64,000 nucleotides of DNA from Escherichia coli (GCF_024298765.1 NZ_CP101210.1), one strand, 5' to 3'. Positions 1 to 46,400 are shown, numbered from the stretch's first letter. The notes: generated from the sequence alone by a model not told the origin. Made by a program: numbers and translations.

Positions 1-260
1 TCAATTATGAGGCTTTTAATTTAGGTACTGGTCAAGGTTATTCTGTTTTAGAGATTGTAAAAATGTTTGAGATAGTCACTAAAAAGAGTATACCTTTTGC
101 TATTTGTAATAGACGTGAGGGGGATGTTGCTGAGTCATGGGCGTCTGCTGATTTGGCACATGAAAAGCTTTCCTGGAAAGCGGAAAAAAAATTGAAAGAA
201 ATGATCGAAGATGTATGGCGTTGGCAAACAAAAAATCCAAATGGATATAAAAAATAATTT
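1..260 (+). CDS. UDP-sugar 4-epimerase (GalE/Gne-like), 3' partial; gene starts upstream of window
   Basis: C-terminal translation ...AESWASADLAHEKLSWKAEKKLKEMIEDVWRWQTKNPNGYKK closely parallels the C-terminus of the complete epimerase at 12838-13857; stop at 258-260. Confidence 0.7.
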
Positions 261-275
261 TTGGAATTTTGATAT

Positions 276-1292
276 ATGAAAAATGTTGGTTTTATTGTTA
301 CAAAATCAGAAATTGGTGGTGCACAAACATGGGTAAATGAAATATCTAACCTTATTAAAGAGGAATGTAATATATTTCTTATTACATCTGAAGAAGGATG
401 GCTCACACATAAAGATGTCTTTGCTGGAGTTTTTGTCATACCAGGTATTAAAAAATATTTTGACTTCCTTACATTGTTTAAATTGAGAAAAATTTTAAAA
501 GAAAATAATATTTCAACATTAATAGCAAGTTCTGCTAATGCCGGAGTTTATGCTAGGTTAGTTCGATTACTAGTCGACTTTAAATGTATTTATGTTTCGC
601 ATGGATGGTCTTGTTTATATAATGGTGGTCGACTAAAATCAATTTTTTGTATTGTGGAGAAATACCTTTCTTTATTAACTGATGTTATATGGTGTGTTTC
701 CAAAAGTGATGAAAAAAAAGCAATTGAGAAAATTGGTATAAAAGAAACAAAGATAATCACAGTATCGAATTCAGTGCCTCAGATGCCAAGATGTAATAAT
801 AAACCACTCCAGTATAAAGTTCTGTTTGTTGGTAGGTTAACACACCCTAAGCGCCCCGAATTGTTAGCGAATGTAATATCGAAAAAGCCCCAGTATAGCC
901 TCCATGTCGTAGGAGGGGGGGAAAGGTTAGAATCATTGAAGAAACAATTCAGTGAATGTGAAAATATTCATTTTATGGGTGAGGTCAATAATTTTTATAA
1001 CTATCATGAGTATGATTTATTTTCACTGATATCCGATAGTGAAGGTTTGCCTATGTCAGGCCTTGAGGCTCACACAGCTGCAATACCACTCCTTTTAAGT
1101 GATGTGGGCGGATGTTTTGAATTAATTGAGGGTAATGGGGTACTTGTGGAAAATACTGAAGACGACATTGGATATAAATTGGATAAAATATTCGATGACT
1201 ATGAAAATTATCGGGAACAGGCAATTCGTGCCTCCGGAAAATTTGTTATCGAGAACTATGCTTCAGCATATAAAAGCATTATTTTAGGTTGA
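276..1292 (+). CDS. glycosyltransferase, GT4-like (group 1)
   Basis: 338 aa; C-terminal EGLPMSGLEAHTAAIPLL...DVGG resembles the GT4 E-x7-E region; low GC typical of O-antigen genes. Confidence 0.65.
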   Translation: MKNVGFIVTKSEIGGAQTWVNEISNLIKEECNIFLITSEEGWLTHKDVFAGVFVIPGIKKYFDFLTLFKLRKILKENNISTLIASSANAGVYARLVRLLVDFKCIYVSHGWSCLYNGGRLKSIFCIVEKYLSLLTDVIWCVSKSDEKKAIEKIGIKETKIITVSNSVPQMPRCNNKPLQYKVLFVGRLTHPKRPELLANVISKKPQYSLHVVGGGERLESLKKQFSECENIHFMGEVNNFYNYHEYDLFSLISDSEGLPMSGLEAHTAAIPLLLSDVGGCFELIEGNGVLVENTEDDIGYKLDKIFDDYENYREQAIRASGKFVIENYASAYKSIILG

Positions 1293-1318
1293 GTATTTTT
1301 TAGAACAGGAAATGTAAA

Positions 1319-2440
1319 ATGGCTAAAGTCGCTCTCATTACTGGCATAACCGGACAAGACGGTTCTTACCTGGCAGAGTTTCTGCTGGAAAAAGGTTACG
1401 AGGTGCATGGTATTAAGCGTCGTGCATCGTCATTCAACACCGAGCGCGTGGATCACATTTATCAGGATCCGCACACCTGCAACCCGAAATTCCATCTGCA
1501 TTATGGCGACCTGAGTGATACCTCCAACCTGACGCGCATTTTGTGTGAAGTGCAGCCGGATGAAGTGTACAACCTTGGCGCAATGAGTCACGTTGCGGTC
1601 TCTTTTGAGTCACCGGAATATACCGCAGACGTTGATGCGATGGGTACGCTGCGCCTGCTCGAGGCGATCCGCTTCCTCGGTCTGGAAAAGAAAACCCGTT
1701 TCTATCAGGCTTCCACTTCTGAACTGTACGGTCTGGTGCAGGAGATTCCGCAGAAAGAGACCACGCCGTTCTACCCACGCTCTCCGTATGCAGTCGCCAA
1801 ACTGTACGCCTACTGGATCACCGTTAACTACCGCGAATCCTACGGCATGTACGCCTGTAACGGTATTCTCTTTAACCATGAATCCCCGCGCCGCGGCGAA
1901 ACCTTCGTTACCCGCAAAATCACCCGCGCAATCGCCAACATCGCACAGGGGCTGGAGTCGTGCCTGTACCTCGGCAATATGGATTCCCTGCGTGACTGGG
2001 GCCACGCCAAAGACTACGTAAAAATGCAGTGGATGATGCTGCAACAGGAACAGCCGGAAGATTTCGTCATCGCTACCGGCGTTCAGTATTCCGTGCGTCA
2101 GTTCGTGGAAATGGCGGCAGAGCGAGTCGGAATCAAACTGCGTTTTGAAGGCGCAGGTGTAGATGAGAAAGGGATAGTGGTTTCTGTTAATGGTGAGGAT
2201 GCTCCAGCAGTTAAACCTGGAGATGTAATCGTTAAGGTTGACCCGCGTTACTTCCGTCCGGCTGAAGTTGAAACACTGCTCGGCGACCCGACCAAAGCGC
2301 ACGAAAAACTGGGCTGGAAACCGGAAATCACCCTCAGAGAGATGGTGTCTGAAATGGTGGCTAATGACCTCGAAGCGGCGAAAAAACACTCTCTGCTGAA
2401 ATCTCACGGCTACGACGTGGCGATCGCGCTGGAGTCATAA
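1319..2440 (+). CDS. gmd: GDP-mannose 4,6-dehydratase
   Basis: 373 aa; N-terminal Rossmann motif [25 protein letters not shown]; conserved short-chain dehydratase core; high GC. Confidence 0.95.
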
Positions 2441-2442
2441 GC

Positions 2443-3408
2443 ATGAGTAAACAACGCATTTTTATCGCTGGCCATCGTGGGATGGTCGGTTCTGCCATCA
2501 GGCGGCAGCTCAAACAGCGCGGTGATGTGGAACTGGTATTACGCACCCGCGACGAGCTGAACCTGCTGGACAGCCGCGCGGTGCATGATTTCTTTGCCAG
2601 CGAACGCATTGACCAGGTCTATCTGGCGGCGGCGAAAGTGGGCGGCATTGTTGCCAACAACACCTATCCGGCGGATTTCATCTACCAGAACATGATGATT
2701 GAGAGCAACATCATTCACGCCGCGCATCAGAACGACGTGAACAAACTGCTGTTTCTCGGATCGTCCTGTATCTACCCGAAACTGGCAAAACAGCCGATGG
2801 CAGAAAGCGAGTTATTGCAGGGCACGCTGGAGCCGACCAACGAGCCTTACGCCATTGCCAAAATCGCCGGGATCAAACTGTGCGAATCTTACAACCGCCA
2901 GTATGGACGCGATTACCGCTCAGTCATGCCGACCAACCTGTACGGGCCGCACGACAACTTCCACCCGAGTAACTCGCACGTGATCCCTGCATTGCTGCGT
3001 CGCTTCCACGAGGCGACGGCACAGAATGCGCCGGACGTGGTGGTGTGGGGCAGCGGTACACCGATGCGCGAATTTCTGCACGTTGATGATATGGCAGCGG
3101 CGAGCATTCATGTGATGGAGCTGGCGCACGAAGTCTGGCAGGAGAACACCCGGCCGATGCTGTCGCACATTAACGTCGGCACGGGCGTTGACTGCACTAT
3201 CCGTGAGCTGGCGCAAACCATCGCCAAAGTGGTGGGTTACAAAGGTCGGGTGGTTTTTGATGCCAGCAAACCGGATGGTACGCCGCGCAAACTGCTGGAT
3301 GTGACGCGCCTGCATCAGCTTGGCTGGTATCACGAAATCTCACTGGAAGCGGGGCTTGCCAGCACTTACCTGTGGTTCCTTGAGAATCAAGACCGCTTTC
3401 GGGGGTAA
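2443..3408 (+). CDS. fcl: GDP-L-fucose synthase (GDP-4-keto-6-deoxymannose epimerase/reductase)
   Basis: 321 aa; [17 protein letters not shown](P)-binding motif; immediately downstream of gmd. Confidence 0.95.
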
Positions 3409-3911
3409 TGATGTTTTTACGTCAGGAAGACTTTGCCACGGTAGTGCGCTCCACCCCGCTTGTCTCCCTCGACTTTATTGTTGAGAACAGTCGCGGCGAG
3501 TTTCTGCTTGGCAAAAGAACCAACCGCCCGGCGCAGGGTTACTGGTTTGTGCCGGGAGGGCGCGTGCAGAAAGACGAAACGCTGGAAGCCGCATTTGAGC
3601 GGCTGACGCTTGCGGAACTGGGGTTGCGTCTGCCGATAACAGCAGGCCAGTTTTACGGTGTCTGGCAGCACTTTTATGACGATAACTTCTCCGGCTCGGA
3701 TTTCACCACTCACTATGTGGTGCTCGGTTTTCGCATCAGAGTAGCGGAAGAAAAGCTGTTACTGCCGGATGAGCAGCATGACGATTACCGCTGGCTGACG
3801 CCGGACGCGTTGCTCGCCAGTGACAATGTTCACGCTAACAGCCGAGCTTATTTTAATCATGATCCAAGAGCTGTTATTGGTTTAGATAAAAAGGATGTCA
3901 AAAATGTCTGA
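3408..3911 (+). CDS. gmm: GDP-mannose mannosyl hydrolase (Nudix)
   Basis: 167-aa ORF (probable start at second Met, 3411); position after fcl matches the gmd-fcl-gmm order. Confidence 0.85.
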
Positions 3912-5352
3912 TGTACCGTTGATTGCTGTTGTAATGGCTGGTGGTACGGGTAGCCGTCTTTGGCCCCTCTCAAGAGAGCACTATCCGAAGCAATTTCTGC
4001 AATTATCAGGTGAGAATACTTTATTACAGTCAACCTTATTACGACTATCCCCGCTTTCTTGCGAAACTCCATTAGTAATAACAAATGAGCAACATCGCTT
4101 TGTGGTTGCAGAACAATTACGTCAAATTGATCAGTTAAGAGATAATATTATTCTTGAGCCATGTGGAAGAAATACGGCTCCCGCCATAGCTCTTTCAGCA
4201 TTTACAGCTTTGAAGCGTAATGAACAACAGGATCCTATTTTGTTGATTCTCGCAGCTGACCATATTATAAGCAAAGCGGATGTTTTTTGTGACGCTATTC
4301 AAAAATCGAAAACTGTAGCTGAACAGGGGAATATTGTAACCTTTGGGATTATACCTGAATATGCGGAAACAGGTTATGGTTATATAAAAAAAGGAGATCC
4401 TTTTAAAATTTTACCAAATATTACTGATGATAAGTTTTATCATGTCCAACAATTTATTGAAAAACCTAACCATTCGACGGCAGAAGAGTATGTTTCCACA
4501 GGAGAATATCTCTGGAATAGTGGAATGTTTATGTTTAAAGCATCAGTATATTTAGAGGAATTGAAAAAGCACAGGCCTGATATATACGAAATCTGTGAGC
4601 AGACAGCTTCATTATCCTATAACGATCTTGATTTCATACGATTGCCTAAACATATTTTCCAAGATTGTCCGTCGGAATCAATTGATTTTGCGGTTATGGA
4701 AAAAACAAAAAATTGCATTGTTCGTCCAGTAGACATCGGGTGGAGTGATGTAGGCTCTTGGCATTCTTTGTGGGATATTAGTGATAAAACGCAGGATGGA
4801 GATGTCTGTAAAGGTGATATTCTAACTTATAACACTAAAAACAATTATATATATTGTGAATCAGCCCTAGTGGCTGCTGTAGGTGTAGAAGATATAGTTA
4901 TTGTTCAAACAAAAGATGCTATTCTCGTGTCCAAAAAAACTGAGGTTCAGGATGTAAAAAAAATAGTAGAAATGCTTAAGGAACATGAGCGCTCAGAGTA
5001 TATATCGCATCGAGAGGAGTTTCGGCCTTGGGGAAAATTTGATGCGATAGATCAGGGAGAACGATATAAAGTTAAAAAGATAGTTGTGAAACCCGGCGAA
5101 GGACTATCCTTACGAATGCACCATCATCGTTCTGAGCATTGGATTGTTCTTTCCGGCACAGCAAAAGTAACTTTAAACGATAAAACAGTATTGCTTGCTG
5201 CAAATGAATCAATCTACATTCCTCTAGGAGCAACGTATAGTCTTGAAAATCCAGGAATAATCCCTCTGAATCTTATTGAGGTTAGTTCAGGCGATTATTT
5301 AGGTGAGGATGATATTGTACGGCAAAAAGAACGCTACAGAATAGATGACTAA
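3895..5352 (+). CDS. manC: mannose-1-phosphate guanylyltransferase
   Basis: 485-aa ORF; N-terminal [17 protein letters not shown] nucleotidyltransferase motif; C-terminal cupin-like region; exact start uncertain (3895 or 3904). Confidence 0.9.
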
Positions 5353-5355
5353 TAT

Positions 5356-6735
5356 ATGAAAAAATTAACCTGCTTTAAAGCCTATGATATTCGCGGGAAA
5401 TTAGGTGAAGAACTGAATGAAGATATCGCCTGGCGCATTGGTCGCGCCTATGGCGAATTTCTCAAACCGAAAACCATTGTGTTAGGCGGTGATGTCCGCC
5501 TCACCAGCGAAACCTTAAAACTGGCGCTGGCAAAAGGTTTGCAGGATGCGGGCGTCGATGTGCTGGATATTGGTATGTCCGGCACCGAAGAGATCTATTT
5601 CGCCACGTTCCATCTCGGCGTGGATGGCGGCATTGAAGTTACCGCCAGTCATAATCCGATGGATTACAACGGCATGAAACTGGTGCGCGAAGGGGCTCGC
5701 CCGATCAGCGGCGATACCGGACTGCGCGATGTCCAGCGTCTGGCAGAAGCCAACGACTTTCCTCCCGTTGATGAAACCAAACGCGGTCGCTATCAGCAAA
5801 TCAACCTGCGTGACGCTTACGTTGATCACCTGTTCGGTTATATCAGTGTCAAAAACCTTACGCCGCTCAAGCTGGTGATTAACTCCGGGAACGGCGCGGC
5901 GGGTCCGGTGGTGGACGCCATTGAAGCCCGCTTTAAAGCCCTCGGCGCACCGGTGGAATTAATCAAAGTACACAACACGCCGGACGGCAATTTCCCCAAC
6001 GGTATTCCTAACCCGTTGCTGCCGGAATGCCGCGACGACACCCGTCATGCGGTCATCAAACACGGCGCGGATATGGGCATTGCCTTTGATGGCGATTTTG
6101 ACCGCTGTTTCCTGTTTGACGAAAAAGGGCAGTTTATCGAGGGCTACTACATTGTCGGCTTGCTGGCACAAGCGTTCCTCGAAAAAAATCCCGGCGCGAA
6201 GATCATCCACGATCCACGTCTCTCCTGGAACACCGTTGATGTGGTGACTGCCGCAGGCGGCACCCCGGTAATGTCGAAAACCGGACACGCCTTTATTAAA
6301 GAACGGATGCGCAAGGAAGACGCCATCTACGGTGGCGAAATGAGCGCCCACCATTACTTCCGTGATTTTGCTTACTGCGACAGCGGCATGATCCCGTGGC
6401 TGCTGGTCGCCGAACTGGTGTGTCTGAAAGGAAAAACGCTGGGCGAACTGGTGCGCGACCGGATGGCAGCATTTCCGGCAAGCGGTGAGATCAACAGCAA
6501 ACTGGCGGACCCCGTTGAGGCGATTAACCGCGTGGAACAGCATTTTAGCCGTGAGGCGCTGGCGGTGGATCGCACCGATGGCATCAGTATGACCTTTGCC
6601 GACTGGCGCTTTAACCTGCGCTCCTCCAACACCGAACCGGTGGTGCGCCTGAATGTGGAATCGCGCGGTAATATAGCATTAATGAATGAACAGGTTGAAT
6701 TTATTACAAAATTTTTAAACGGTGATGGTTTATGA
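5356..6735 (+). CDS. manB: phosphomannomutase
   Basis: 459 aa; phosphohexomutase active-site region TASHNP; follows manC. Confidence 0.9.
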
Positions 6736-7289
6736 GAATATTAAAAATTATTATAAGTGTATTGTTGTTTATAAAAAAGAAAAGAAAAAAAATACCGGAC
6801 TCAGCAATAATAAACTTAACAAGTCATGTGGATAAACATTCAGTAATTGGAAAGTGTTGTTATATAGGGAAAAATGTATATATAACTAAAAGTATCATTG
6901 GGAATTACACATCTATTGCAAATAATGTCTCAATTGGTCAAGGTGAACATAAGGTTGATGCAGTTAGTACAAGTTCGATGTTCTACGATAATGAATTCGA
7001 AGATTTAACACAAAACGATTGTATTATAGGTAATGATGTGTGGCTCGGTACAGGAGTTACTGTATTACGAGGGGTAAGAATTGGTGATGGTGCTATTATT
7101 GGTGCTAATGCCGTTGTCACAAAAAATATTCCAGATTATTGTATTGCGGTAGGAGTACCTGCGAAAGTAATCAAAAGAAGATTACCAGTAAATGTTACTG
7201 AAAAAATAAAAGAGACTAAATGGTGGAATGATGAATATGAAGTGGCGAAGGATAAAATTATTTGCTTAACAAATGAATTAAAGTTATGA
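6732..7289 (+). CDS. hexapeptide-repeat acetyltransferase (putative O-acetyltransferase)
   Basis: 185 aa; left-handed beta-helix repeats [31 protein letters not shown]; start overlaps manB stop. Confidence 0.75.
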
Positions 7290-8728
7290 ACAAAAAAGAA
7301 ATAATTATCTTGCTTATAGCCAGAATTCTACAGATTCTCATTAGTTTATTCACAATGAGATTGATGACAACGATTTTAAGCAATGAGCAAATGGGGGAGT
7401 ATTATATTTTTTTAGCAATCTATATGTTGGCATCATTGGGTATAATTAATCCAATAGGACAATATGTGAATCGCAACACTTATTTATGGTGGAGAGAGGG
7501 AGTACTAACCCAATATATTGATCGATATATTAATTTTGTTTTGTGTTTTTCGCTTATTTATGTGATTTTGTATGGACTTGGTGAATGTTTGTTTAAAGGA
7601 ATAAATACACCATTTTGGATGTTATTCTGTTATTTATATATAGTATGTTTATCTCTAAACCAATTTCTATTACATACTTTAAATATCTTAAATTTTAAGA
7701 TAGTATTTTCCATTATGACGTTGATGACTTCTGTATTAAGTTTATCAGGGGCATATTTATTTATTGAATATAGCATAGCTAAACAAACTGTTAGTATATA
7801 TTACTGGGTTGCAGGAATCATAATTGGCAATTTTATTTCTTTATGTATATGCGTTGTATATCTGAGATGTAGAAATACGTTCCAAAAATCAATTCCTAAA
7901 TCTATCAATGTAAGCATAAAAGAAGTTTTTAATTTTTGCTGTCCAATTATGATAACAACTTTGTTCATTTGGTTTCAAAGCTCTGGATATCGATTTGCTG
8001 TCGAGCAAATGTTTGGCTTAAAGTTTTTAGGTATACTAGCTGTATGTTTTGCTGTGTCAGGGCAAATAATGTCAGTGATTGAGTCTTTAGTGACACAGAT
8101 ATTTCAACCAACATTATTTAAGCATATGGATAATGTCAAAAATAGAAAGCAACATCTAGATTTTTATATTAATGAAAATATAGCAATTTATGCTAGTGTA
8201 TTATTTTTTTGTACTTTCTTTATGCGCGAAATATTTTTGGTTTTAGTTGACAATAAATATCTTCCTTACTTCTATATAGGTATAATAGCTTTATGGAGTG
8301 AATTTTTTAGGATATCAACCAATACTTTGTCTTTAGTGTTTTTTTGCGAAAAGAAAATGAAGGTGGGAATTTTTCCTTATTTAATTGGCTCATTAAGTCT
8401 GGCTTTTTCGATCGTCTTGTTCAGGTTGTTAAATGTAAATTTGGGTATTTTAATAGCTTTTGCTATTGGGATTGCACAATTGGCCTCCTTTATCGTTTGC
8501 TTAATTACGGTAAAAAAAATCTCTTATTTTAAAATAAATTCCATCTTCTTAATGAAGAGGATAATAATAGTACTACCTTCTGTGTTAATTGCCCATTGCA
8601 TTCCTAAATTTGAAATGATTAATGCTGTCCATTTTATTATCATTTTCGGTGTCGGTTTATTTTACTTAATCTCTTTAGTTACTTCTTTTATGTTTATTAA
8701 ACAACCAGGAGGTGTTTATGGAAGTTAA
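7286..8728 (+). CDS. wzx: O-unit flippase
   Basis: 480 aa, highly hydrophobic multi-span protein, very AT-rich; position in O-antigen cluster. Confidence 0.8.
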   Translation: MNKKEIIILLIARILQILISLFTMRLMTTILSNEQMGEYYIFLAIYMLASLGIINPIGQYVNRNTYLWWREGVLTQYIDRYINFVLCFSLIYVILYGLGECLFKGINTPFWMLFCYLYIVCLSLNQFLLHTLNILNFKIVFSIMTLMTSVLSLSGAYLFIEYSIAKQTVSIYYWVAGIIIGNFISLCICVVYLRCRNTFQKSIPKSINVSIKEVFNFCCPIMITTLFIWFQSSGYRFAVEQMFGLKFLGILAVCFAVSGQIMSVIESLVTQIFQPTLFKHMDNVKNRKQHLDFYINENIAIYASVLFFCTFFMREIFLVLVDNKYLPYFYIGIIALWSEFFRISTNTLSLVFFCEKKMKVGIFPYLIGSLSLAFSIVLFRLLNVNLGILIAFAIGIAQLASFIVCLITVKKISYFKINSIFLMKRIIIVLPSVLIAHCIPKFEMINAVHFIIIFGVGLFYLISLVTSFMFIKQPGGVYGS

Positions 8729-9569
8729 AATTATTGGGGGACTTGGCAATCAGATGTTTCAGTATGCAACTGCATTTGCTATTGCAAAAAGAACTCATCA
8801 AAATTTGACTGTTGATATATCTGATGCAGTAAAATATAAAACTCATCCATTAAGATTAGTTGAATTATCTTGTAGTTCAGAATTTGTAAAAAAAGCATGG
8901 CCATTTGAAAAATACTTATTTTCCGAAAAAATCCCACATTTCATGAAAAAAGAAATGTTCAGAAAGCATTACGTTGAGAAAAGTTTAGAGTATGATCCAG
9001 ATATTGATACTAAAAGTATAAATAAAAAAATCGTCGGTTATTTTCAAACTGAAAAATATTTTAAGGAATTTAGGCATGAGTTGATAAAGGAATTTCAACC
9101 TAAAACTAAGTTTAATAGTTATCAAAATGAATTGCTTAATTTAATTAAAGAAAATGATACTTGTTCATTGCATATTAGAAGAGGTGATTATGTTTCCAGT
9201 AAAATAGCAAATGAAACTCATGGTACATGTAGTGAAAAATATTTTGAACGTGCCATTGATTATTTGATGAATAAAGGTGTTATTAATAACAAAACCCTTC
9301 TCTTCATTTTTTCTGATGATATAAAGTGGTGCAGGGAAAATATATTTTTTAATAATCAAATATGTTTTGTTCAAGGTGATGCTTATCATGTTGAATTAGA
9401 TATGTTGCTTATGAGTAAATGTAAAAATAATATAATTTCAAATAGTTCTTTCAGTTGGTGGGCTGCTTGGTTAAATGAAAATAAAAATAAAACAGTAATT
9501 GCTCCGAGTAAATGGTTTAAGAAAGATATTAAACATGATATTATTCCCGAATCGTGGGTAAAATTATGA
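8712..9569 (+). CDS. alpha-1,2-fucosyltransferase (GT11 family)
   Basis: 285 aa; N-terminal IIGGLGNQMFQYATAFAIAKR and HIRRGDY motif characteristic of GT11 fucosyltransferases. Confidence 0.8.
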   Translation: MFMEVKIIGGLGNQMFQYATAFAIAKRTHQNLTVDISDAVKYKTHPLRLVELSCSSEFVKKAWPFEKYLFSEKIPHFMKKEMFRKHYVEKSLEYDPDIDTKSINKKIVGYFQTEKYFKEFRHELIKEFQPKTKFNSYQNELLNLIKENDTCSLHIRRGDYVSSKIANETHGTCSEKYFERAIDYLMNKGVINNKTLLFIFSDDIKWCRENIFFNNQICFVQGDAYHVELDMLLMSKCKNNIISNSSFSWWAAWLNENKNKTVIAPSKWFKKDIKHDIIPESWVKL

Positions 9570-10432
9570 TGGAAGATACAAAAGAATTAATAACAGTAAT
9601 AATGCCTGTTTATAATGCGGAAAAATACATATATGAATCTATAAAAAGTATTTTGGTGCAGTCATATTCTAATTTTGAGTTCATCATTATTAATGATGGC
9701 TCAAAAGATTCTTCTGGAAAAATTATTGAAAACTTTCTCGATGATACGAGGATACGATATATAAATCGTGAAAATAAAGGTTTGGTCTTCACTCTGAATG
9801 AAGCTATTTCGTTATCAAGAGGAAATTATATTGCTCGAATGGATGCTGATGATATTTCACATCCCCTACGATTAGAAAAGCAACTAAATTTTCTACTAGA
9901 AAATCCAGATATAGCCGTAGTTGGGTGTTCTTCTTTTATTATTGACCAAAATTCTAAGGTTATAAATACGCGAAAACCACCTTTGACACCTTTAGTAAAT
10001 AAAGCATTGCTATTTTTTGGCCCAACATTAACTCATCCATCAGTGATGTTTAATAAAATACTACTTGGAGATCAGCTTTACTACAGTGATAAATATCTTC
10101 ATGTTGAAGATTATGACTTGTGGTTGAGGTTAATTAATCAATACAAAATAGCTAATATCAAAGATGTTCTTTTTTACTATCGAATTAATGAGTCAGGTGT
10201 TTCACAGACTAATTTATTTGAACAAAAAATTAATGCTGCTAAAGCATATAGTGAAATTAAATATGATGGTAAGTATAAAGACTTACTGGAAAAGTTAGAA
10301 GTCATACACCTGAGACATGAAATGGAGAAAAGTAAGGTCTTTCAGGCCGTATTATATATATTATTAAAGTATGAACATGATTCATTATTATTTTTAAAAT
10401 TAGGATATATATTACGATGGTTAATAAAATAA
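9554..10432 (+). CDS. glycosyltransferase family 2
   Basis: 292 aa; ITVIMPVYNAEKYI...IIINDGSKD and ARMDADD (DxD) motifs. Confidence 0.8.
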   Translation: MGKIMMEDTKELITVIMPVYNAEKYIYESIKSILVQSYSNFEFIIINDGSKDSSGKIIENFLDDTRIRYINRENKGLVFTLNEAISLSRGNYIARMDADDISHPLRLEKQLNFLLENPDIAVVGCSSFIIDQNSKVINTRKPPLTPLVNKALLFFGPTLTHPSVMFNKILLGDQLYYSDKYLHVEDYDLWLRLINQYKIANIKDVLFYYRINESGVSQTNLFEQKINAAKAYSEIKYDGKYKDLLEKLEVIHLRHEMEKSKVFQAVLYILLKYEHDSLLFLKLGYILRWLIK

Positions 10433-11316
10433 AAATAGCACTAATAAGTACAGAAAAAGCTAATCTTCCTGAAATTGAAGCCTATAAGGAGTATTTTTCG
10501 GAGCCATTTGATGTCTCTGTTGTTAATAAAAATGATGATTTAAGTTGTTATGATGTTTTATGGTACTTTATGGGGTTTAAAGGTAATAAAATAAACTCTA
10601 AACAGTTCTTGATTCATGAGTTTTCCTCAATTTCAGTACCACCATTTCCAAAAATAAAAAACGTTATCAAGAAATTTATTTTGCCTAAACCTAATTTGAG
10701 GGTTTTTTTAAATAAATCAGTGCAACAACAATTCGATTTTAATGATAGAGTTCCTTTTTGTTACCGAGATATGGGCGTCAATTATAAACCAGTAGTTGAA
10801 AGAAATAATAAAAAATATGATATATTATATGTGGGGGCAATTACTGGTAGAAAACTAGATGATGCATTAAATTTGATTTTGTCATATAAATTAGATTGTA
10901 AAATCGCAATTCTTGGTAAAGTGCCAGAAAAGTTCAAAGAAAAATATAAAAATACTGATGTTATATTTCTTGGGCAAGTTCCTTATAATCGGGTAGCCAC
11001 CATTATTGCAGAATCTAACTTGTGTTTAAATTGGATTCCGAATATTTATCCATATAACATGCAGACATCAACAAAATTCTTAGAGTATCTGGCACAAAAT
11101 AAACAAATAATATCGAATAGCTACCCTTGGGTTGACTCTTATTGTCAACAGCATAATATTGACTATATTAATGTCAATGATTCCAATTCTATTCGACAAG
11201 CATTGAACTCAGTCATAATCCAAAAATCAACACATATCCCCCCAAGTTGGCGAGAGGTTATTATGAATAGCGGGATAGAGAATCACATTAAATCATATTT
11301 TGAGGTAACAAAATGA
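10417..11316 (+). CDS. putative glycosyltransferase
   Basis: 299 aa, low-GC ORF between GT2 gene and wzy, overlapping stop/start junctions; no strong motif identified. Confidence 0.45.
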   Translation: MVNKIKIALISTEKANLPEIEAYKEYFSEPFDVSVVNKNDDLSCYDVLWYFMGFKGNKINSKQFLIHEFSSISVPPFPKIKNVIKKFILPKPNLRVFLNKSVQQQFDFNDRVPFCYRDMGVNYKPVVERNNKKYDILYVGAITGRKLDDALNLILSYKLDCKIAILGKVPEKFKEKYKNTDVIFLGQVPYNRVATIIAESNLCLNWIPNIYPYNMQTSTKFLEYLAQNKQIISNSYPWVDSYCQQHNIDYINVNDSNSIRQALNSVIIQKSTHIPPSWREVIMNSGIENHIKSYFEVTK

Positions 11317-12356
11317 TTTCTTACGGAGTGCTATTTCTCTTCTCTTATATCAATGCTGTACTTCAGAAGAGAGTAACCGTAACGTTACTATTTTTTATAA
11401 TGATAATTGTTTCTTTCTTTAAATATAATATTGGATTTGATTGGGGGAATTATCATGAAATTTACCTTCAGCAAGGAGATGGCTTTTTTTTTAATGAACC
11501 CCTATTTTCTCTCTTAATTATTCTTTCCAATAAGGTTGCATTAGAATATAAATATTTTATATCAATGTGCTCATTAATTACACTGATTGTTTATTATTCT
11601 GGTATGCGGTGTTTTGCAAGAGATATAAAAGAGTTAGCTTTAGCATTAACTTATTTTGTTGTCTCTTATTGCTACTTTGAACACTTTAATATTATTCGAC
11701 AAGCTTTAGCAATCGCTTTATTCTTTTATAGTTGGAAATATATTATTGAGACTAACTTTATAATGTATAGCCTCTTTATTTTTTTTGCATCTATGATTCA
11801 TGCGGCGGCGGTTGTATTGCTCCCATTTTACTTTTTCCTTAGAATTGATAATTTTAAACCTGTATATTATGGTATAGTGGTCTTATTTATTATTATTGTT
11901 GTTAGATTCGATATTAACAGCATCCTTTTAAGTTCACTTAATTTATTTAAAAATTTCGATTTTGTAGCCAGGTATTTAGCAAATTCAACAGATTTGGCTG
12001 ACTTTGCATCAAAAAAATCTGATCTTGGATTAAGTAAGATATACCCAGCAATTATATTTGTTTTCTGTTGTTTTTGGGGAGGGATTAGGTTAGAGTCTCG
12101 AAGAGACTATGTTTTTTTTAATGCTGGCTTTATTGCAATAACTTTACTGCTCTTAAGCTATCAGGTTGATATTTTGTTTAGATTTTTCTCTTTTTTTGAG
12201 ACTTCATTTGTCTTGTTGTACTGCATTATTTTTTCTGGTTTTAATAAAAAAAGTAAAATTATACTGCATATGGTTAATTTAATTGTATATACGGTAATGA
12301 CATTTAACATGTTATCAGTAATGGGCTTGATTCCTTATGAATCATACATTTTCTAA
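11313..12356 (+). CDS. wzy: O-antigen polymerase
   Basis: 347 aa, very hydrophobic multi-span protein with extreme AT bias; no recognisable soluble domain. Confidence 0.65.
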   Translation: MISYGVLFLFSYINAVLQKRVTVTLLFFIMIIVSFFKYNIGFDWGNYHEIYLQQGDGFFFNEPLFSLLIILSNKVALEYKYFISMCSLITLIVYYSGMRCFARDIKELALALTYFVVSYCYFEHFNIIRQALAIALFFYSWKYIIETNFIMYSLFIFFASMIHAAAVVLLPFYFFLRIDNFKPVYYGIVVLFIIIVVRFDINSILLSSLNLFKNFDFVARYLANSTDLADFASKKSDLGLSKIYPAIIFVFCCFWGGIRLESRRDYVFFNAGFIAITLLLLSYQVDILFRFFSFFETSFVLLYCIIFSGFNKKSKIILHMVNLIVYTVMTFNMLSVMGLIPYESYIF

Positions 12357-12730
12357 TAAGCTTCCCTCAGTTGTTTGTTGTATAGTAATATTTTAATATC
12401 ATTGCAGTGTGTAATTATTGTCAATAAGCTAATTTCTGTTATTTGCATGATTAATTCAGTTTGCAATGCTTGATGTAAAAAGATAAAGTGCACCCGTTTA
12501 CACAATGTTTATTTTGGCATGTCAAGTATAAGTTCTAAATAATACGTTTGTAATGTTTAGCATGTAAACATAATAGTTAAATAATATTAAACATGCAACA
12601 TGCCATTTGTTATTCTAATAAAACATATGTGTTGTGTGAATTATTTAATGTGGAAAGTGGTTGCGTATTATAAATTGTTCATATTGACGTTTAAGTCTTT
12701 TATAACTCCATGCTTGCATGTTAAAAACAT

Positions 12731-12752
12731 TTCGCTATATATTCGCTATATA
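12731..12752. repeat. perfect tandem direct repeat 2 x 11 bp (ttcgctatata) within AT-rich intergenic region
   Basis: ttcgctatatattcgctatata read directly; lies in the 480-bp gene-free region 12357-12837. Confidence 0.9.
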
Positions 12753-12837
12753 TTATGGTAGGTGGTTTTTATCTAGGCAGATTTGTCTATTTAACTCTAA
12801 ATCTAAATCGCTTAAGAAAGTATGAGTAGGAGTATTT

Positions 12838-13857
12838 ATGGCTATTCTCGTTACAGGTGGTGCTGGTTATATTGCATCACATACTATACTGAGTTTGATA
12901 GAGCAGGGTAATGAAGTAATTATTATTGATAATTTATCAAATTCATATTATGATTCGTTATTGAAAATAAAAGAGATTACTGGATGTGATTGTCTTTTTT
13001 ATAAAGGAGATATCCTTGACAAAAAACTCTTGCTAAAAATATTTGATGAAAATAATATCACTGCTGTGATGCATTTTGCTGGTGCAAAGTCTGTAAGTGA
13101 ATCTGTTATCAGACCTTTGCAATACTATCGAAATAATGTCTCTGGCACTTTTTCTTTAGTTGAGGCAATGGAGGAGTCTGGTGTAGAAAATTTAATATTT
13201 AGCTCTTCAGCAACTGTCTATGGTGAGCCAAAGATTATTCCTGTGAATGAAAGTTGTGCTATAGGTGGTACTACAAATCCGTATGGAACGTCCAAGTTAT
13301 TTGTAGAGAACTTTTTGCGGGATTATTCTAAGGCATCCCCTAATTTTAAAACTATAGTATTAAGATATTTTAACCCTATCGGTGCTCACTCATCTGGAAA
13401 AATAGGTGAAGATCCTAACGGAATTCCGAATAACTTGATGCCCTTTATATGCCAGGTTGCTATCGGTAAACAAAAAACGCTCAAGATCTACGGAAATGAT
13501 TATCCTACTAAAGATGGTACTGGGATTCGCGATTATATTCATGTTATGGATCTTGCTGAAGGTCATGTTGCTGCATTAAATAATATTAATCAAGGAGCTA
13601 ATTATAGAGTTTACAACCTTGGAACAGGAATTGGATACTCTGTGTTGGAATTATTAGAAGCATTTCAGAAAGTTACAACTCGGAGAGTTCCCTATGTTTT
13701 TACTAAAAGGCGTTCAGGTGATATCGCTGAATGTTGGTCTGATCCTACCAAAGCGTATGAAGAATTAGGATGGAAAGCAAGGCGAGGGTTAGAAGATATG
13801 ATTCGTGATGCATGGAATTGGCAGCAAAAAAATCCAAATGGATTTAAGAAAGTTTAA
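12838..13857 (+). CDS. gne: UDP-GlcNAc/UDP-Glc 4-epimerase
   Basis: 339 aa; N-terminal ILVTGGAGYIASHT NAD-binding motif; C-terminus parallels the partial epimerase at window start. Confidence 0.9.
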   Translation: MAILVTGGAGYIASHTILSLIEQGNEVIIIDNLSNSYYDSLLKIKEITGCDCLFYKGDILDKKLLLKIFDENNITAVMHFAGAKSVSESVIRPLQYYRNNVSGTFSLVEAMEESGVENLIFSSSATVYGEPKIIPVNESCAIGGTTNPYGTSKLFVENFLRDYSKASPNFKTIVLRYFNPIGAHSSGKIGEDPNGIPNNLMPFICQVAIGKQKTLKIYGNDYPTKDGTGIRDYIHVMDLAEGHVAALNNINQGANYRVYNLGTGIGYSVLELLEAFQKVTTRRVPYVFTKRRSGDIAECWSDPTKAYEELGWKARRGLEDMIRDAWNWQQKNPNGFKKV

Positions 13858-13963
13858 TAAAAATGAAACGATATATTAAGTGTTAGCTTGTTTAATTAAT
13901 TTAAAGTTAATATTATTTACATTAATATGTAATGAAAGTGATATTCTATGACAGGAGTAAACA

Positions 13964-15370
13964 ATGTCAAAGCAACAGATCGGCGTAGTCGGTATGGCAG
14001 TGATGGGGCGCAACCTTGCGCTCAACATCGAAAGCCGTGGTTATACCGTCTCTATTTTCAACCGTTCCCGTGAAAAGACGGAAGAAGTGATTGCCGAAAA
14101 TCCAGGCAAGAAACTGGTTCCTTACTATACGGTGAAAGAGTTTGTTGAATCTCTGGAAACGCCTCGTCGCATCCTGTTAATGGTGAAAGCAGGTGCAGGC
14201 ACGGATGCTGCTATTGATTCCCTCAAGCCATACCTCGATAAAGGTGACATCATTATTGATGGTGGTAATACCTTCTTCCAGGATACCATTCGTCGTAACC
14301 GTGAGCTTTCTGCCGAAGGTTTTAACTTCATTGGTACCGGTGTCTCCGGTGGTGAAGAAGGCGCGCTGAAAGGTCCTTCCATCATGCCTGGTGGGCAGAA
14401 AGAAGCCTATGAACTGGTTGCACCGATCCTGACCAAAATCGCCGCCGTTGCTGAAGATGGCGAACCGTGCGTTACCTATATTGCTGCCGATGGCGCGGGT
14501 CACTATGTGAAGATGGTTCACAACGGTATTGAATACGGTGATATGCAACTGATTGCTGAAGCCTATTCTCTCCTGAAAGGCGGCCTGAATCTTTCTAACG
14601 AAGAACTGGCACAGACCTTTACCGAGTGGAATAACGGTGAACTGAGCAGCTACCTGATCGACATCACCAAAGACATCTTCACTAAAAAAGATGAAGACGG
14701 TAACTACCTGGTTGATGTGATCCTGGATGAAGCGGCTAACAAAGGTACCGGTAAATGGACCAGCCAGAGCGCGCTGGATCTCGGAGAACCGCTGTCGCTG
14801 ATTACCGAGTCTGTGTTTGCACGTTATATCTCTTCTCTGAAAGATCAGCGTGTTGCAGCGTCTAAAGTTCTCTCTGGTCCGCAAGCGCAGCCTGCTGGCG
14901 ACAAGGCTGAGTTCATCGAAAAAGTTCGTCGTGCTCTGTATCTGGGCAAAATCGTTTCTTACGCCCAAGGCTTCTCTCAGCTGCGTGCTGCGTCTGAAGA
15001 GTACAACTGGGATCTGAACTACGGCGAAATCGCGAAGATTTTCCGTGCTGGCTGCATCATCCGTGCGCAGTTCCTGCAGAAAATCACCGATGCTTATGCC
15101 GAAAATCCGCAGATCGCTAACCTGCTGCTGGCTCCGTACTTCAAGCAAATTGCCGATGACTACCAGCAGGCGCTGCGTGATGTCGTTGCTTATGCAGTAC
15201 AGAACGGTATCCCGGTTCCGACCTTCGCGGCTGCGGTTGCCTATTATGACAGCTACCGCGCCGCAGTTCTGCCTGCAAACCTGATCCAGGCACAGCGTGA
15301 CTATTTCGGTGCGCATACTTATAAGCGCATTGATAAAGAAGGTGTGTTCCATACTGAATGGCTGGATTAA
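13964..15370 (+). CDS. gnd: 6-phosphogluconate dehydrogenase, decarboxylating
   Basis: 468 aa; N-terminal [17 protein letters not shown]; high GC core-gene composition. Confidence 0.97.
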
Positions 15371-25084: not shown

Positions 25085-25120
25085 AATAAAAAAGCCCCCG
25101 GAAGGTGATCTTCCGGGGGC
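25085..25120 (-). terminator. his attenuator terminator hairpin
   Basis: gcccccggaag...cttccgggggc stem followed (minus strand) by U-run, between hisL and hisG. Confidence 0.85.
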
Positions 25121-25184
25121 TTTCTCATGCGTTCATGTACCACTGGAAGATCTGAATGTCTTCCAGCACACATCGCCTGAAAGA

Positions 25185-25235
25185 CTAGTCAGGATGATGG
25201 TGATGATGGTGGTGTTTAAATTGAACGCGTGTCAT
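25185..25235 (-). CDS. hisL: his operon leader peptide
   Basis: minus-strand reading atgacacgcgttcaatttaaacaccaccatcatcaccatcatcctgactag = MTRVQFKHHHHHHHPD* (seven consecutive His codons). Confidence 0.95.
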   Translation of the reverse strand: MTRVQFKHHHHHHHPD

Positions 25236-27902: not shown

Positions 27903-28168
27903 AGAAAAATTATTATGACAAGCCTCTCATTCTCTTGTCATTTCCCCCCCATTTAGGCACAATGCGCCGCTGTCAAAAAATGACTAAAAACCGACGTTTC
28001 ATCAGCGTCGGTTATTTTTTGCTTCAAACCAATCATTCATACCAAGAGGCCGGGCTTCGTACCGGATAGATATTTACTAAAAATCGACAGTTGTTGTCGC
28101 TGAGGAATCCAAAAAAATGGGGCAATTTTTTGCTTACGCGACGGTTATCACCGTAAAGGAGAATGACC

Positions 28169-41817: not shown

Positions 41818-42888
41818 TTATTTAATCCGGGCCATCGCGTTTCTCAGTGCCAAATCTGCCTCTTCCGTTATATCCAGGCTTTTCTGCAATACCGCCTCTG
41901 ACCGGGTCAGTGCCTGACGTGCTGCCAGCGGTTTCCGGATATGCTCCATCGCCAGCATCGTGTCTTCATAGCCCTGCTGACGCCAGGCGTCGGTATGTGC
42001 CGATGTAAAACTGAGCAGACCGCCGCTGTTGCCACCATCACCTGCATATTTCAGCCTTTTCCGGGGACGGATCTCAAGGATTGTGGTGTCCGGAAAAGCC
42101 TGGCGATCCCATAAAGAACCCTCACTCAGATGCGTCACAATCACCATATTGCATCCGGCATCGACCAGAGGCGTCACAGGGGTATTTCCCTGCATATTTC
42201 GCCATCCTCCCATACCACCATCACCGAACATTGTCCCCTGAACCTCACGGGGACGGAACAGCAGGGGCAGCGCGGCTGACGCAAGCAGAGCCTCTTTCTG
42301 CTGTCCGCGGGGCAGGCTCTGGATATGCTGAAAAACGGCGTTTTTCGTGGTTCCGACACCCAGTTCAGCACGAATGCAGTCAATAATATCCTGCATGCCC
42401 CCTTCTGTGGGGTACAGCGACACATACAGCGGTAGCCCGTCTGCCAGAGCATCAGTATCAAGATAATGATCCATCAGCGCTGTCAGGGGCTCATCTGACA
42501 ACAACGGCTGAGCCATCAGATTGTCAAACCCGTTGATTGTCGATATATGGCGAAGAAGCGTCGTAAGCAGTGCTCCTGCACGTCCGGGGATCTGGCAGAG
42601 GTTCATTGCCTGGAACAATTTTTTCAGCAATGAAAAGTAAACCAATCTGTTTACCGACAGCACCTGATTATTCCCCAGATGATCCCAGAGCGCCTCCAGG
42701 CGTACGGCAGCTTCTGACAGATCGGGAGAGGCCGCGATAATGGCACCATTGAATGCGCCAATGCTGGCCCCTGAAACCATGCTGATCTGTGTACCACACT
42801 CTGCCAGTGCCTTAACCACTCCCGCCTGATAAGCGCCCACCGCCCCGCCACCGGACAGCACCAGCCCCGTTTTCATTTCTGTACTCAT
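41818..42888 (-). CDS. patatin-like phospholipase
   Basis: 356 aa; oxyanion-hole SGGGAVGAYQAG, nucleophile elbow GASIG, catalytic Asp motif FGDGGM; start codon overlaps upstream gene stop. Confidence 0.85.
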   Translation of the reverse strand: MSTEMKTGLVLSGGGAVGAYQAGVVKALAECGTQISMVSGASIGAFNGAIIAASPDLSEAAVRLEALWDHLGNNQVLSVNRLVYFSLLKKLFQAMNLCQIPGRAGALLTTLLRHISTINGFDNLMAQPLLSDEPLTALMDHYLDTDALADGLPLYVSLYPTEGGMQDIIDCIRAELGVGTTKNAVFQHIQSLPRGQQKEALLASAALPLLFRPREVQGTMFGDGGMGGWRNMQGNTPVTPLVDAGCNMVIVTHLSEGSLWDRQAFPDTTILEIRPRKRLKYAGDGGNSGGLLSFTSAHTDAWRQQGYEDTMLAMEHIRKPLAARQALTRSEAVLQKSLDITEEADLALRNAMARIK

Positions 42889-43790
42889 GCAGCCCCCTTC
42901 TGAAATATTTCATCGACCATACTTTCAGAGAGGCGTTCTGCAGAGCAGAGGCGAGGCATGCGAACCGGTAAGTGTTCTGCAGCCTGCGTGGTTGACCAGA
43001 TCACCGGATGCTGCTCTTCACTGCACCAGTCTCCCAGCCAGTTAATCGCGTCATGCCACTCGTTATCTGCCTGCTCCCGGCCCTGACCACCAAGCCAGTC
43101 CAGAGTGTTCAGACGCACGGTTGCACTACCGCCACTCTCCTGTGCCATCTGCGTTAATGCTTTATGTCTGAGAATATCCAGTAGCTGGTTAACCTGGCCT
43201 GTTTCGCTCTGACGTATCACATCACCAAACGCGCCCCAGCGAAGCTCTTCAAGTGCCACATAACAACGTCCGGCAGGGGAAAATGACGCATATCGCCCGG
43301 CGCTCCACCATGAGAATATCTGCTCAAGATGTAACTGCGCCCGCTGAACCTGGTCAACACGGTGGAGTTTTTCTTCAAGATGATTCAGTTTATGGTGAAC
43401 CTGATCGGCCAGGGTGAGTAACTGCTCCCGCGTATCTGCGGAATAATGCGCCAGCCTGGCTGTATCACTGACCAGTGAACTGACCCTGTCGTTTACCCGG
43501 GTAATCGCGTAGTTTGTGGTGGCAAGTGACGTTGTCAGCTCCGTCAGCCAGCGCAGGGATGCCTCAACGCCCTGTGCAAGCGAAGCATTGATGGCATTCT
43601 GCCGTGCAGCACCTTCGCCGCTCAGCCCCTCTTTTAACCGCCGGAAGAACGTGCGCTCTCCGGCCGTGCGGATATGCTCCTGTGCAACATCGATACCGTT
43701 TGCGAAATCAACCACAAATTTTTCAGGAAGACAGGTGAGTACCTGACATACCCGGTTATCAGCAATTTGTTGAATAAATGGTGAAGTCAC
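42885..43790 (-). CDS. coiled-coil protein, possible YjcZ-like partner of dynamin-like GTPase
   Basis: 301 aa, helical/coiled-coil character, no enzymatic motif seen; overlapping stop/start junctions with both flanking genes. Confidence 0.5.
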   Translation of the reverse strand: MTSPFIQQIADNRVCQVLTCLPEKFVVDFANGIDVAQEHIRTAGERTFFRRLKEGLSGEGAARQNAINASLAQGVEASLRWLTELTTSLATTNYAITRVNDRVSSLVSDTARLAHYSADTREQLLTLADQVHHKLNHLEEKLHRVDQVQRAQLHLEQIFSWWSAGRYASFSPAGRCYVALEELRWGAFGDVIRQSETGQVNQLLDILRHKALTQMAQESGGSATVRLNTLDWLGGQGREQADNEWHDAINWLGDWCSEEQHPVIWSTTQAAEHLPVRMPRLCSAERLSESMVDEIFQKGAA

Positions 43791-46183: not shown

Positions 46184-46244
46184 TATTTAACCTTCCTAAG
46201 ACGCATTTTCATGACAACCACGGAGGAGGTCATTTACTACAAAT

Positions 46245-46279
46245 GATCGTTTATAACGATCGATATGATAGTAACGATC
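46245..46279. promoter_or_regulatory. cluster of three GATC (Dam) sites in 5' region of the dynamin-like operon
   Basis: GATC at 46245, 46258 and 46276; aacgatcgat occurs twice 18 bp apart; 62-96 bp upstream of the GTPase start codon. Confidence 0.5.
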
Positions 46280-46400
46280 GATGTATTCTATTAACTTGAG
46301 AAACACAACGCAAGGGGACAACCCGGGTATGGCTGCGTTTGCATAGTGTTTTCATGGAGTTAAAAATCTGTAACAACAGCCTGGTACATCACCACCGGGT

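Follow-up and report, generated by a model that had tools for sequence, protein, structure and literature searches.

The window analyzed here is a stretch of 64,000 nucleotides from Escherichia coli (GCF_024298765.1, NZ_CP101210.1), read on one strand from 5' to 3'. Positions 1-13857 are a Wzx/Wzy-dependent O-antigen gene cluster, which lies directly upstream of gnd and consists of an unbroken series of open reading frames (ORFs) on the + strand with strong family assignments (Table 1). A preliminary description of this DNA had listed genes for fucose synthesis, a fucosyltransferase, epimerases and an acetyltransferase. All of them are present on the + strand and match their families strongly; the first complete ORF, which had been taken for an epimerase, is a GT4 glycosyltransferase according to Pfam. 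Judged by its nucleotide identity to annotated genomes, the cluster is that of serogroup O128, a well-known O-antigen cluster, here in a recombinant form. We propose, with a probability of roughly 0.85, that this two-epimerase O128 cluster is a recombinant, which joins a left part of the O127/O86/O90 type to a classical O128 right part and which would direct the pathway described below.

The cluster has the usual location between galF and gnd. The latter gene is in the window, where it is followed by ugd, wzzB and the his operon; galF, which lies beyond the window, directly precedes gne copy 1 in each of the nine genomes that share this arrangement. The site of the JUMPstart/ops element is also beyond the window; an O128:H27 genome carries GGCGGTAG (L001:4490) 49 bp ahead of gne copy 1. 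The G+C content is 27-30% in the serogroup-specific genes versus 53-57% in gmd, fcl, gmm and the middle of manB; such a mosaic is usual for O-antigen clusters. The number of glycosyltransferases in a cluster of this type equals the number of sugars in the O-unit minus one, with WecA adding the first sugar. The four glycosyltransferases encoded here (GT4, GT11, GT2 and WbsL) agree with the pentasaccharide unit reported for O128.

Table 1. Features of the O-antigen locus and its right-hand boundary. Coordinates refer to the first base of the window. Pfam and NCBIfam entries are the family matches on which the names are based.
Feature	Coordinates	Strand	Basis and remarks
gne/galE copy 1, 3' end	3-257	+	Translation: last 84 codons and stop; 5' part beyond the window start
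wbnH-type GT4 glycosyltransferase	276-1292	+	Pfam Glycos_transf_1 and Glyco_transf_4; first complete ORF
gmd	1319-2440	+	Pfam PF16363, E=1.4e-156; O127/O86-type at informative sites
fcl, GDP-L-fucose synthase	2443-3408	+	Pfam Epimerase, E=2.5e-64; fcl annotation in matching genomes
gmm, GDP-mannose mannosyl hydrolase (NUDIX)	3408-3911	+	Pfam NUDIX, E=1.4e-21; annotation in matching genomes
manC, mannose-1-phosphate guanylyltransferase	3895-5352	+	Pfam NTP_transferase and MannoseP_isomer; recombination junction inside
Crossover interval, O127/O86/O90-type to the left, classical O128 to the right	4060-4082		Informative sites
manB, phosphomannomutase	5356-6735	+	All four PGM_PMM domains
Hexapeptide-repeat O-acetyltransferase (CatB/Vat-like)	6732-7289	+	Pfam Hexapep, E=2.8e-17
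wzx, O-unit flippase	7286-8728	+	Pfam Polysacc_synt_3, 24.7 bits (cut-off 23)
wbsJ, GT11, predicted alpha-1,2-fucosyltransferase	8718-9569	+	Pfam Glyco_transf_11 PF01531, E=3.7e-33; HIRRGDY motif
wbsK, GT2 glycosyltransferase	9566-10432	+	Pfam Glycos_transf_2, E=1.6e-33
wbsL, glycosyltransferase outside any curated family	10417-11316	+	Weak GT-B matches only
wzy, O-antigen polymerase	11313-12356	+	Pfam EpsG, E=8.8e-40
AT-rich non-coding spacer between wzy and gne copy 2, 481 bp	12357-12837		Holds an 11-bp tandem duplication
gne/galE copy 2, complete, 339 residues	12838-13857	+	NCBIfam galE, 458 bits (cut-off 262); exactly UniProt Q6XQ49
gnd, right-hand locus boundary, outside the cluster	13964-15370	+	Pfam 6PGD, E=1.2e-135

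The serogroup was assigned by comparison with 5,426 complete E. coli genomes, the set to which the genome counts in this text refer. The segment from wzx to gne copy 2 (galE2; 6700-13900) matches 22 of these genomes over at least 97% of its length with 99.2-99.8% identity. In all 22 genomes wzx is annotated as "O128 family", and strains named O128:H27 and O128ac:H12 are among them. The ten closest genomes, which include the O128:H27 strain 90-9281, are 99.7-99.8% identical over this segment. For wzx and wzy the nucleotide identity to all 22 genomes is 99.3-99.8%. RefSeq names wzx and wzy as the O128 family O-antigen flippase and polymerase, and no other serogroup in the genome set matched wzx, the glycosyltransferases or wzy; the only further match was a weak one to galE. 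The call is based on nucleotide identity to annotated genomes, since NCBIfam contains no serogroup-specific profile hidden Markov model that matches wzx or wzy. Furthermore, the sequence cluster of Wzy includes Q6XQ50 of the O128 entry AY217096. The acetyltransferase (exactly UniProt Q6XQ55, "putative O-acetyltransferase") and GalE2 (Q6XQ49) come from the same UniProt series as WbsJ (Q6XQ53) of the O128:B12 cluster in this entry. The earlier guess of an O127/O86/O128-type serogroup thus resolves to O128, and not to a serogroup without fucose.

The cluster carries an epimerase gene at each end. Only part of the 5' copy is inside the window, as its first 255 codons lie beyond the window start; this fragment is 100% identical to the end of the 339-residue galE of strain 90-9281. 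The nine complete genomes that share the arrangement carry copy 1 in full (339 residues), directly after galF and the ops element, and this position indicates that copy 1 belongs to the cluster. The proposed bracketing by two epimerases therefore holds in that both copies are part of the cluster, but only an 84-codon piece of the first one can be seen in the window itself. The 3' epimerase occurs in 22 complete genomes, the 5' galE-GT4 module in 110 and both together in only 9. The bracketing is rare among complete E. coli genomes, as the preliminary description had suspected, and recombination would explain it.

The two copies share 55% identity at the protein level and about 65% at the DNA level; these values rule out a recent duplication of the epimerase gene. 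In an alignment with GalE from strain K-12 the catalytic residues S124, Y149 and K153 are invariant in both copies. The column of the gatekeeper Tyr299 of K-12 GalE contains Ser (Ser300) in copy 1, within the C-terminal fragment present in the window, and Cys in copy 2. A small residue at this position admits N-acetylated substrates, as in the Y299C mutant of E. coli GalE and with Cys307 of human GALE. Because of Ser or Cys at this position both copies are predicted to be Gne-type epimerases, which interconvert UDP-N-acetylglucosamine (UDP-GlcNAc) and UDP-N-acetylgalactosamine (UDP-GalNAc), as expected from the first description. In 2006 Guo, Li and Wang reportedly found UDP-GlcNAc epimerase activity for the O86 orthologue of copy 1. 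A third 4-epimerase gene, gnu, whose product acts on GlcNAc linked to undecaprenyl pyrophosphate (PP-Und), is located upstream of galF in related genomes.

A search with 25 kb separated two kinds of O128 genome. In nine genomes the match starts at base 1 of the window, while in the others it starts at about position 1319. A recorded O128:H27 strain shares the two-epimerase architecture of the window. The classical form with a single epimerase is present in 11 complete genomes; in strain AW1.7 (O128ac:H12) the order is galF, a 373-residue GT4 gene (wbsH), gmd and so on to galE and gnd, with no 5' epimerase. The serotype labels are O128:H27 for the hybrid form and O128ac:H12 for the classical form, the basis of the latter label being unstated. 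WbsH from AW1.7 is exactly Q6XQ61 and its WbsL exactly Q6XQ51, so that the published reference cluster is the single-epimerase form. The Q6XQ accession series has no slot for a 5' galE. The clusters of O127:H6 strain E2348/69 and of O86 genomes start with galF, galE, a 338-residue GT4 gene and gmd, which is the galE-GT4 5' module counted above.

The left part of the window's cluster, which is of the O127/O90/O86 type, starts with the 3' end of gne copy 1, continues through wbnH, gmd, fcl and gmm and includes the first ~165 bp of manC. What follows, from the rest of manC through manB, the acetyltransferase gene, wzx, wbsJ, wbsK, wbsL and wzy to gne copy 2, makes up the right part, which is of the classical O128 type. 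Window positions 1-1318 are 96-99.6% identical to O127 (O127:H6 E2348/69) and unalignable with classical O128 (O128ac:H12 AW1.7). From about 4100 on, the identity to AW1.7 is given as 99.5-100% and that to O127 as only 74-83%; over the segment from about 4100 to 5250 the ranges are 74-89% to O127 and 95.6-100% to classical O128. The border was located with informative sites, at which O127 and O86 agree and classical O128 differs. Left of the junction nearly all sites are of the O127/O86 type (e.g. 31 of 32 in 2250-2499), and right of it 216 of 217 sites (4250-5499) are of the O128 type. The last O127/O86-type site is at 4059 and the first classical O128 site at 4083, a switch that argues for a single crossover between them, inside manC. 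In strain 90-9281 (O128:H27) the 3.2 kb upstream of gne copy 1, with wcaM, gnu and galF, are about 100% identical to E2348/69. Each of the parental clusters has one gne gene, at opposite ends, and a recombinant of the two therefore carries both. Among public sequences the hybrid form is common, with the exact WbnH sequence of the window on 325 contigs.

Some O128 genomes carry further rearrangements in this region. Strain E41 (L005, NZ_CP069707.1, locus 6679-8374) was ruled out as a representative of the classical form, as it is a deletion derivative with wcaF fused to the O-antigen gmd. In this strain wcaF is directly followed by O-antigen-type gmd, fcl, gmm, manC and manB and by the O128-specific genes; the whole stretch from the fucose genes of the cps locus to the GT4 gene is missing, including wcaM, gnu, galF and the 5' galE. 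This arrangement looks like a deletion by recombination between two gmd copies, which resembles the manB-manB deletion in O14 (PMC7685785), and E41 is probably unable to build a normal O-unit. An insertion sequence breaks the galF-galE-wbnH stretch (L001 4230-6619) in three other strains; in LHM10-1 and CP52E, both O128, it is IS3, and in MB22 it is ISKpn26. These insertions may affect O-antigen expression.

The hybrid and the classical form differ in the glycosyltransferase at the start of the cluster. The window GT4 is 98% identical to WbnH of O86 over all 338 residues, and the crystal structure of WbnH (PDB 4XYW) matches it with E=2e-225. The conserved substrate-binding residues of WbnH, H109, K192, E256 and E264 (PMC4506291), are all present in the window protein. 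WbnH makes GalNAc-alpha1,3-GalNAc-PP-Und (PMC4506291), and its orthologues account for the GalNAc-alpha1,3-GalNAc of O86, O90 and O127 (PMC7685785). By orthology, the window GT4 would be an alpha-1,3-GalNAc transferase that acts on GalNAc-PP-undecaprenol.

WbsH from the classical form is only 25% identical to the window WbnH. Its best PDB relatives are WbnH and PglA, alpha-1,3 transferases which act on the PP-Und-linked first sugar; this similarity places WbsH and WbnH at the same step of the pathway. The pentasaccharide unit of O128 reportedly contains alpha-galactose (Gal) in an alpha-Gal-(1->3)-GalNAc linkage, a structure attributed to Sengupta (1995) and Ali (2008). From this structure WbsH would add Gal, and the hybrid form would place GalNAc instead. 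Hence alpha-GalNAc probably replaces alpha-Gal in the hybrid O-unit, and the repeat is predicted to contain fucose (Fuc), Gal and GalNAc at 1:1:3 instead of 1:2:2.

A mass-spectrometry preprint from 2026 reports O-acetylated O128 repeat units, in line with the O-acetylation predicted in the preliminary description, and O128 strains which differ by a hydroxyl-to-N-acetyl replacement, i.e. from hexose (Hex) to N-acetylhexosamine (HexNAc). According to this preprint one O128 type has two O-acetyl groups per unit, on a hexose, while the other type has a single O-acetyl group. The exchange of wbsH for gne plus wbnH could be the genetic basis of this structural split, with alpha-Gal and two O-acetyl groups on one side and alpha-GalNAc and one on the other; we advance this idea tentatively, as one that is possible though on balance doubtful. 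If the acetyltransferase normally targets O-2 of alpha-Gal, an N-acetyl group at this position would also account for the lower number of O-acetyl groups in the variant, one instead of two. The O128ab/O128ac subgroups may likewise reflect this split, as may the O128-like antigen of the enteroaggregative strain 87/D2. In the library searched we found no literature that connects the two O128 chemotypes with the two cluster architectures.

Downstream of the junction the two O128 forms are nearly the same. The glycosyltransferases are at most 2 residues apart, Wzy 3 and Wzx 7 residues, and the acetyltransferase is identical. WbsJ contains the sequence HIRRGDY, an HxRRxD motif that can be read directly in the sequence and whose role has been described (PMC4202792). 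O128 WbsJ is characterized as a GT11 alpha-1,2-fucosyltransferase, which transfers Fuc from GDP-Fuc to O-2 of beta-Gal (Li et al. 2008, as cited in PMC4202792). The window WbsJ is one residue (G79E) away from an allele that is common to both O128 forms and annotated as alpha-1,2-fucosyltransferase. These data support the prediction that the window protein is an alpha-1,2-fucosyltransferase, and they bear out the L-Fuc-alpha-1,2 linkage proposed before.

With 38% identity, WbsK resembles the O86 glycosyltransferase at the position of WbnJ. WbnJ is a beta-1,3-galactosyltransferase, and we infer the same function for WbsK. WbsL (299 residues) has no Pfam match above threshold and no PDB relative detectable by sequence. 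Its homologues are GT-B proteins of roughly 300 residues, which occur from Citrobacter to Firmicutes, with a homologue of 89% identity in Escherichia albertii. By elimination, WbsL is the putative beta-1,4-GalNAc transferase. The matches of the acetyltransferase to the NCBIfam models Vat, CatB and WbbJ are all below the cut-offs.

The alleles of the window differ at single positions from the O128:H27 reference alleles: G79E in WbsJ, M165I in the GT2 protein, K196R in Wzx, A117V and T131A in Wzy and K109E in GalE2. The window alleles of WbsJ, the GT2 protein and Wzy are found on about 95-115 public contigs, which indicates a lineage marker and not a sequencing error.

From these assignments the following pathway can be proposed. 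WecA and Gnu, which are encoded outside of the window, would make GalNAc-PP-Und. WbnH would then add alpha-1,3-GalNAc, the step at which the unrelated GT4 protein WbsH would add alpha-1,3-Gal in the classical form. The next sugars would be a beta-1,4-GalNAc, presumably added by WbsL, and a beta-1,3-Gal added by WbsK. WbsJ would complete the chain with an alpha-1,2-Fuc from the GDP-fucose that ManB, ManC, Gmd and Fcl are expected to supply. After O-acetylation by the hexapeptide transferase the unit would be flipped by Wzx and polymerized by Wzy via a beta-GalNAc-(1->6)-Gal bond.

The recombinant origin of the cluster has to be weighed against other explanations. That the junction is an assembly chimera of reads from two strains is so improbable as to be negligible: 9 genomes that were closed independently, and whose strains come from different countries and hosts, show the arrangement, and the exact protein alleles of the window occur on about 100 or more public contigs. 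It is also quite improbable that the two-epimerase form is ancestral and the single-epimerase form arose when wbsH replaced gne-wbnH. The divergence is similarly low on both sides of the junction, about 0.3-1.5%, and identity alone gives no direction. However, the gne-wbnH-gmd-fcl-gmm module is an established unit of O86, O90 and O127, found in 110 genomes; upstream of the hybrid the flank agrees with an O127 genome at about 100% identity; and two gne genes in one cluster are most simply explained if two parents with one gne each were combined, so that the reverse direction is less parsimonious. Unlikely, though less so, is a selected division of labor between the epimerases, either between UDP-Gal and UDP-GalNAc or as a response to a higher demand for UDP-GalNAc, in place of a by-product of recombination. 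Both copies are intact in spite of their divergence and are kept in the 9 complete genomes and in hundreds of assemblies; they differ in the gatekeeper residue, Ser versus Cys, and the predicted hybrid unit with three GalNAc residues needs more UDP-GalNAc. Yet copy 2 alone is enough for the antigen of classical O128, which contains Gal and GalNAc, and copy 1 alone for the antigens of O86 and O127, and the small gatekeeper residue of bifunctional epimerases is present in both copies. The sharp crossover explains their co-occurrence without any selection.

A more serious competitor, which we still consider rather doubtful, concerns the product. The two O128 forms could make one and the same polymer, with WbsH and WbnH interchangeable or promiscuous and with another cause for the Hex/HexNAc heterogeneity. 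Both forms are typed as O128, their downstream glycosyltransferases are nearly identical, and the closest solved relatives of WbsH, WbnH and PglA, are GalNAc transferases. This alternative is at odds with the low identity between WbsH and WbnH, with the GalNAc-alpha1,3-GalNAc made by WbnH orthologues in three other serogroups, with the alpha-Gal that the reported O128 structure has where WbnH would place GalNAc, and with the two compositions in the 2026 preprint, which fit the two genotypes. Some points nevertheless weigh against our interpretation of the cluster as a recombinant with an altered second sugar. Since the solved relatives of WbsH transfer GalNAc, WbsH might also use UDP-GalNAc, in which case both forms would possibly display one polymer. 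The connection between WbnH and the HexNAc variant is drawn by us, as the preprint comes without genotypes or genetics. WbsL is weakly similar to GT1/GT4-type domains, and if it is a retaining enzyme the assignment of steps would need revision. On the side of the DNA, our knowledge of galF, of the ops element and of the missing first two-thirds of gne copy 1 comes only from related genomes, and in the middle of manB (5500-6500) the signal is mixed; we attribute this mixture to exchange with the colanic-acid gene cpsG.

The spacer between wzy and galE2 contains no ORF longer than 53 residues, no terminator-like site and no Rfam family. It is present only in the 22 O128 genomes, and no similarity to it was found outside of O128 clusters. 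At 12731-12752, about 85-105 bp upstream of the galE2 start codon, an 11-bp tandem duplication holds TTCGCTATATA twice. In all 22 complete O128 genomes the spacer is 470 bp long and has no duplication.

In the whole 64-kb window the only Rfam matches are the histidine operon leader (25086-25209, - strand) and the enterobacterial small RNA STnc240 (27948-28022, + strand), and no transfer RNA gene was found. On the - strand at 41818-47312 there are four adjacent genes, which encode a patatin-like phospholipase (356 residues), a YjcZ/RdcB-like protein (301 residues), a dynamin-family protein (798 residues) and a YeeP-like GTPase (303 residues). Around them is a CP4-44-like island, which further contains cbtA/cbeA, yeeS/yeeT, IS66/ISL3 remnants and an antirestriction gene. 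The window has an intact dynamin-family gene; in the closest complete genome, WS4437A-1, this gene is truncated.

Among the strains of serogroup O128 are enterotoxigenic, enteropathogenic and Shiga-toxin-producing E. coli, whose O-antigen is a mimic of human H blood-group structures. When strains are typed by wzx and wzy, both forms are called "O128" despite different glycosyltransferases for the second step and, probably, different sugars displayed. The difference between the two forms bears on serology, on the design of glycoconjugate vaccines and diagnostics and on recognition by phages or lectins. In addition, the cluster illustrates clearly how GDP-fucose genes that different clusters have in common serve as recombination sites which reshuffle O-antigen modules; the general picture of O-antigen synthesis is unchanged.

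The closest known system is the O128 cluster itself, which is already known from O128:B12 (AY217096; Shao et al. 2003, FEBS Lett 553:99, as cited in PMC5643014). Between manC at ~4083 and galE2, the window agrees with this cluster in gene content and gene order, at 99.3-100% nucleotide identity; the acetyltransferase and GalE2 are identical, and WbsJ, WbsK, WbsL and Wzy are 1-3 residues apart. In contrast to the window, the reference starts with galF and wbsH and has a single gne/galE at the 3' end, whereas the window has gne copy 1, the 338-residue WbnH and gmd, fcl and gmm of the O127 type.

The first seven genes are common to the clusters of O86, O90 and O127, whose relationship is ascribed to recombination that replaced the part downstream (Feng et al. 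2005, as cited in PMC7685785). The 5' module gne-wbnH-gmd-fcl-gmm of the window is 97-99% identical to theirs, with 98% for the WbnH protein, and in both cases diversification would proceed by homologous exchange within the shared GDP-fucose genes. Unlike in these clusters, the shared block of the window stops inside manC and not after manB. The downstream genes, unlike those of O86 and O127, are O128-specific, with protein identities of at most 30-40%, and include a second gne. The review from 2020 does not group O128 with O86, O90 and O127 (PMC7685785).

Two further systems offer partial parallels. The O-units of O107 and O117 differ by GlcNAc in place of glucose, which is caused by three substitutions in one glycosyltransferase (PMC7685785). 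As in the two O128 forms, related clusters differ there by a hexose versus an N-acetylhexosamine at one position of a five-sugar unit; however, the O128 forms swap a whole unrelated GT4 gene plus an epimerase gene. The EAOg8 cluster of E. albertii is a mosaic of the O128 and O55 clusters (PMC6927306). It is likewise a natural mosaic that reuses part of the O128 cluster, and E. albertii has a WbsJ homologue in addition to the WbsL homologue mentioned above. It differs from the window in that it belongs to another species and that its exchange concerns colitose for fucose, and not the second sugar of the unit.

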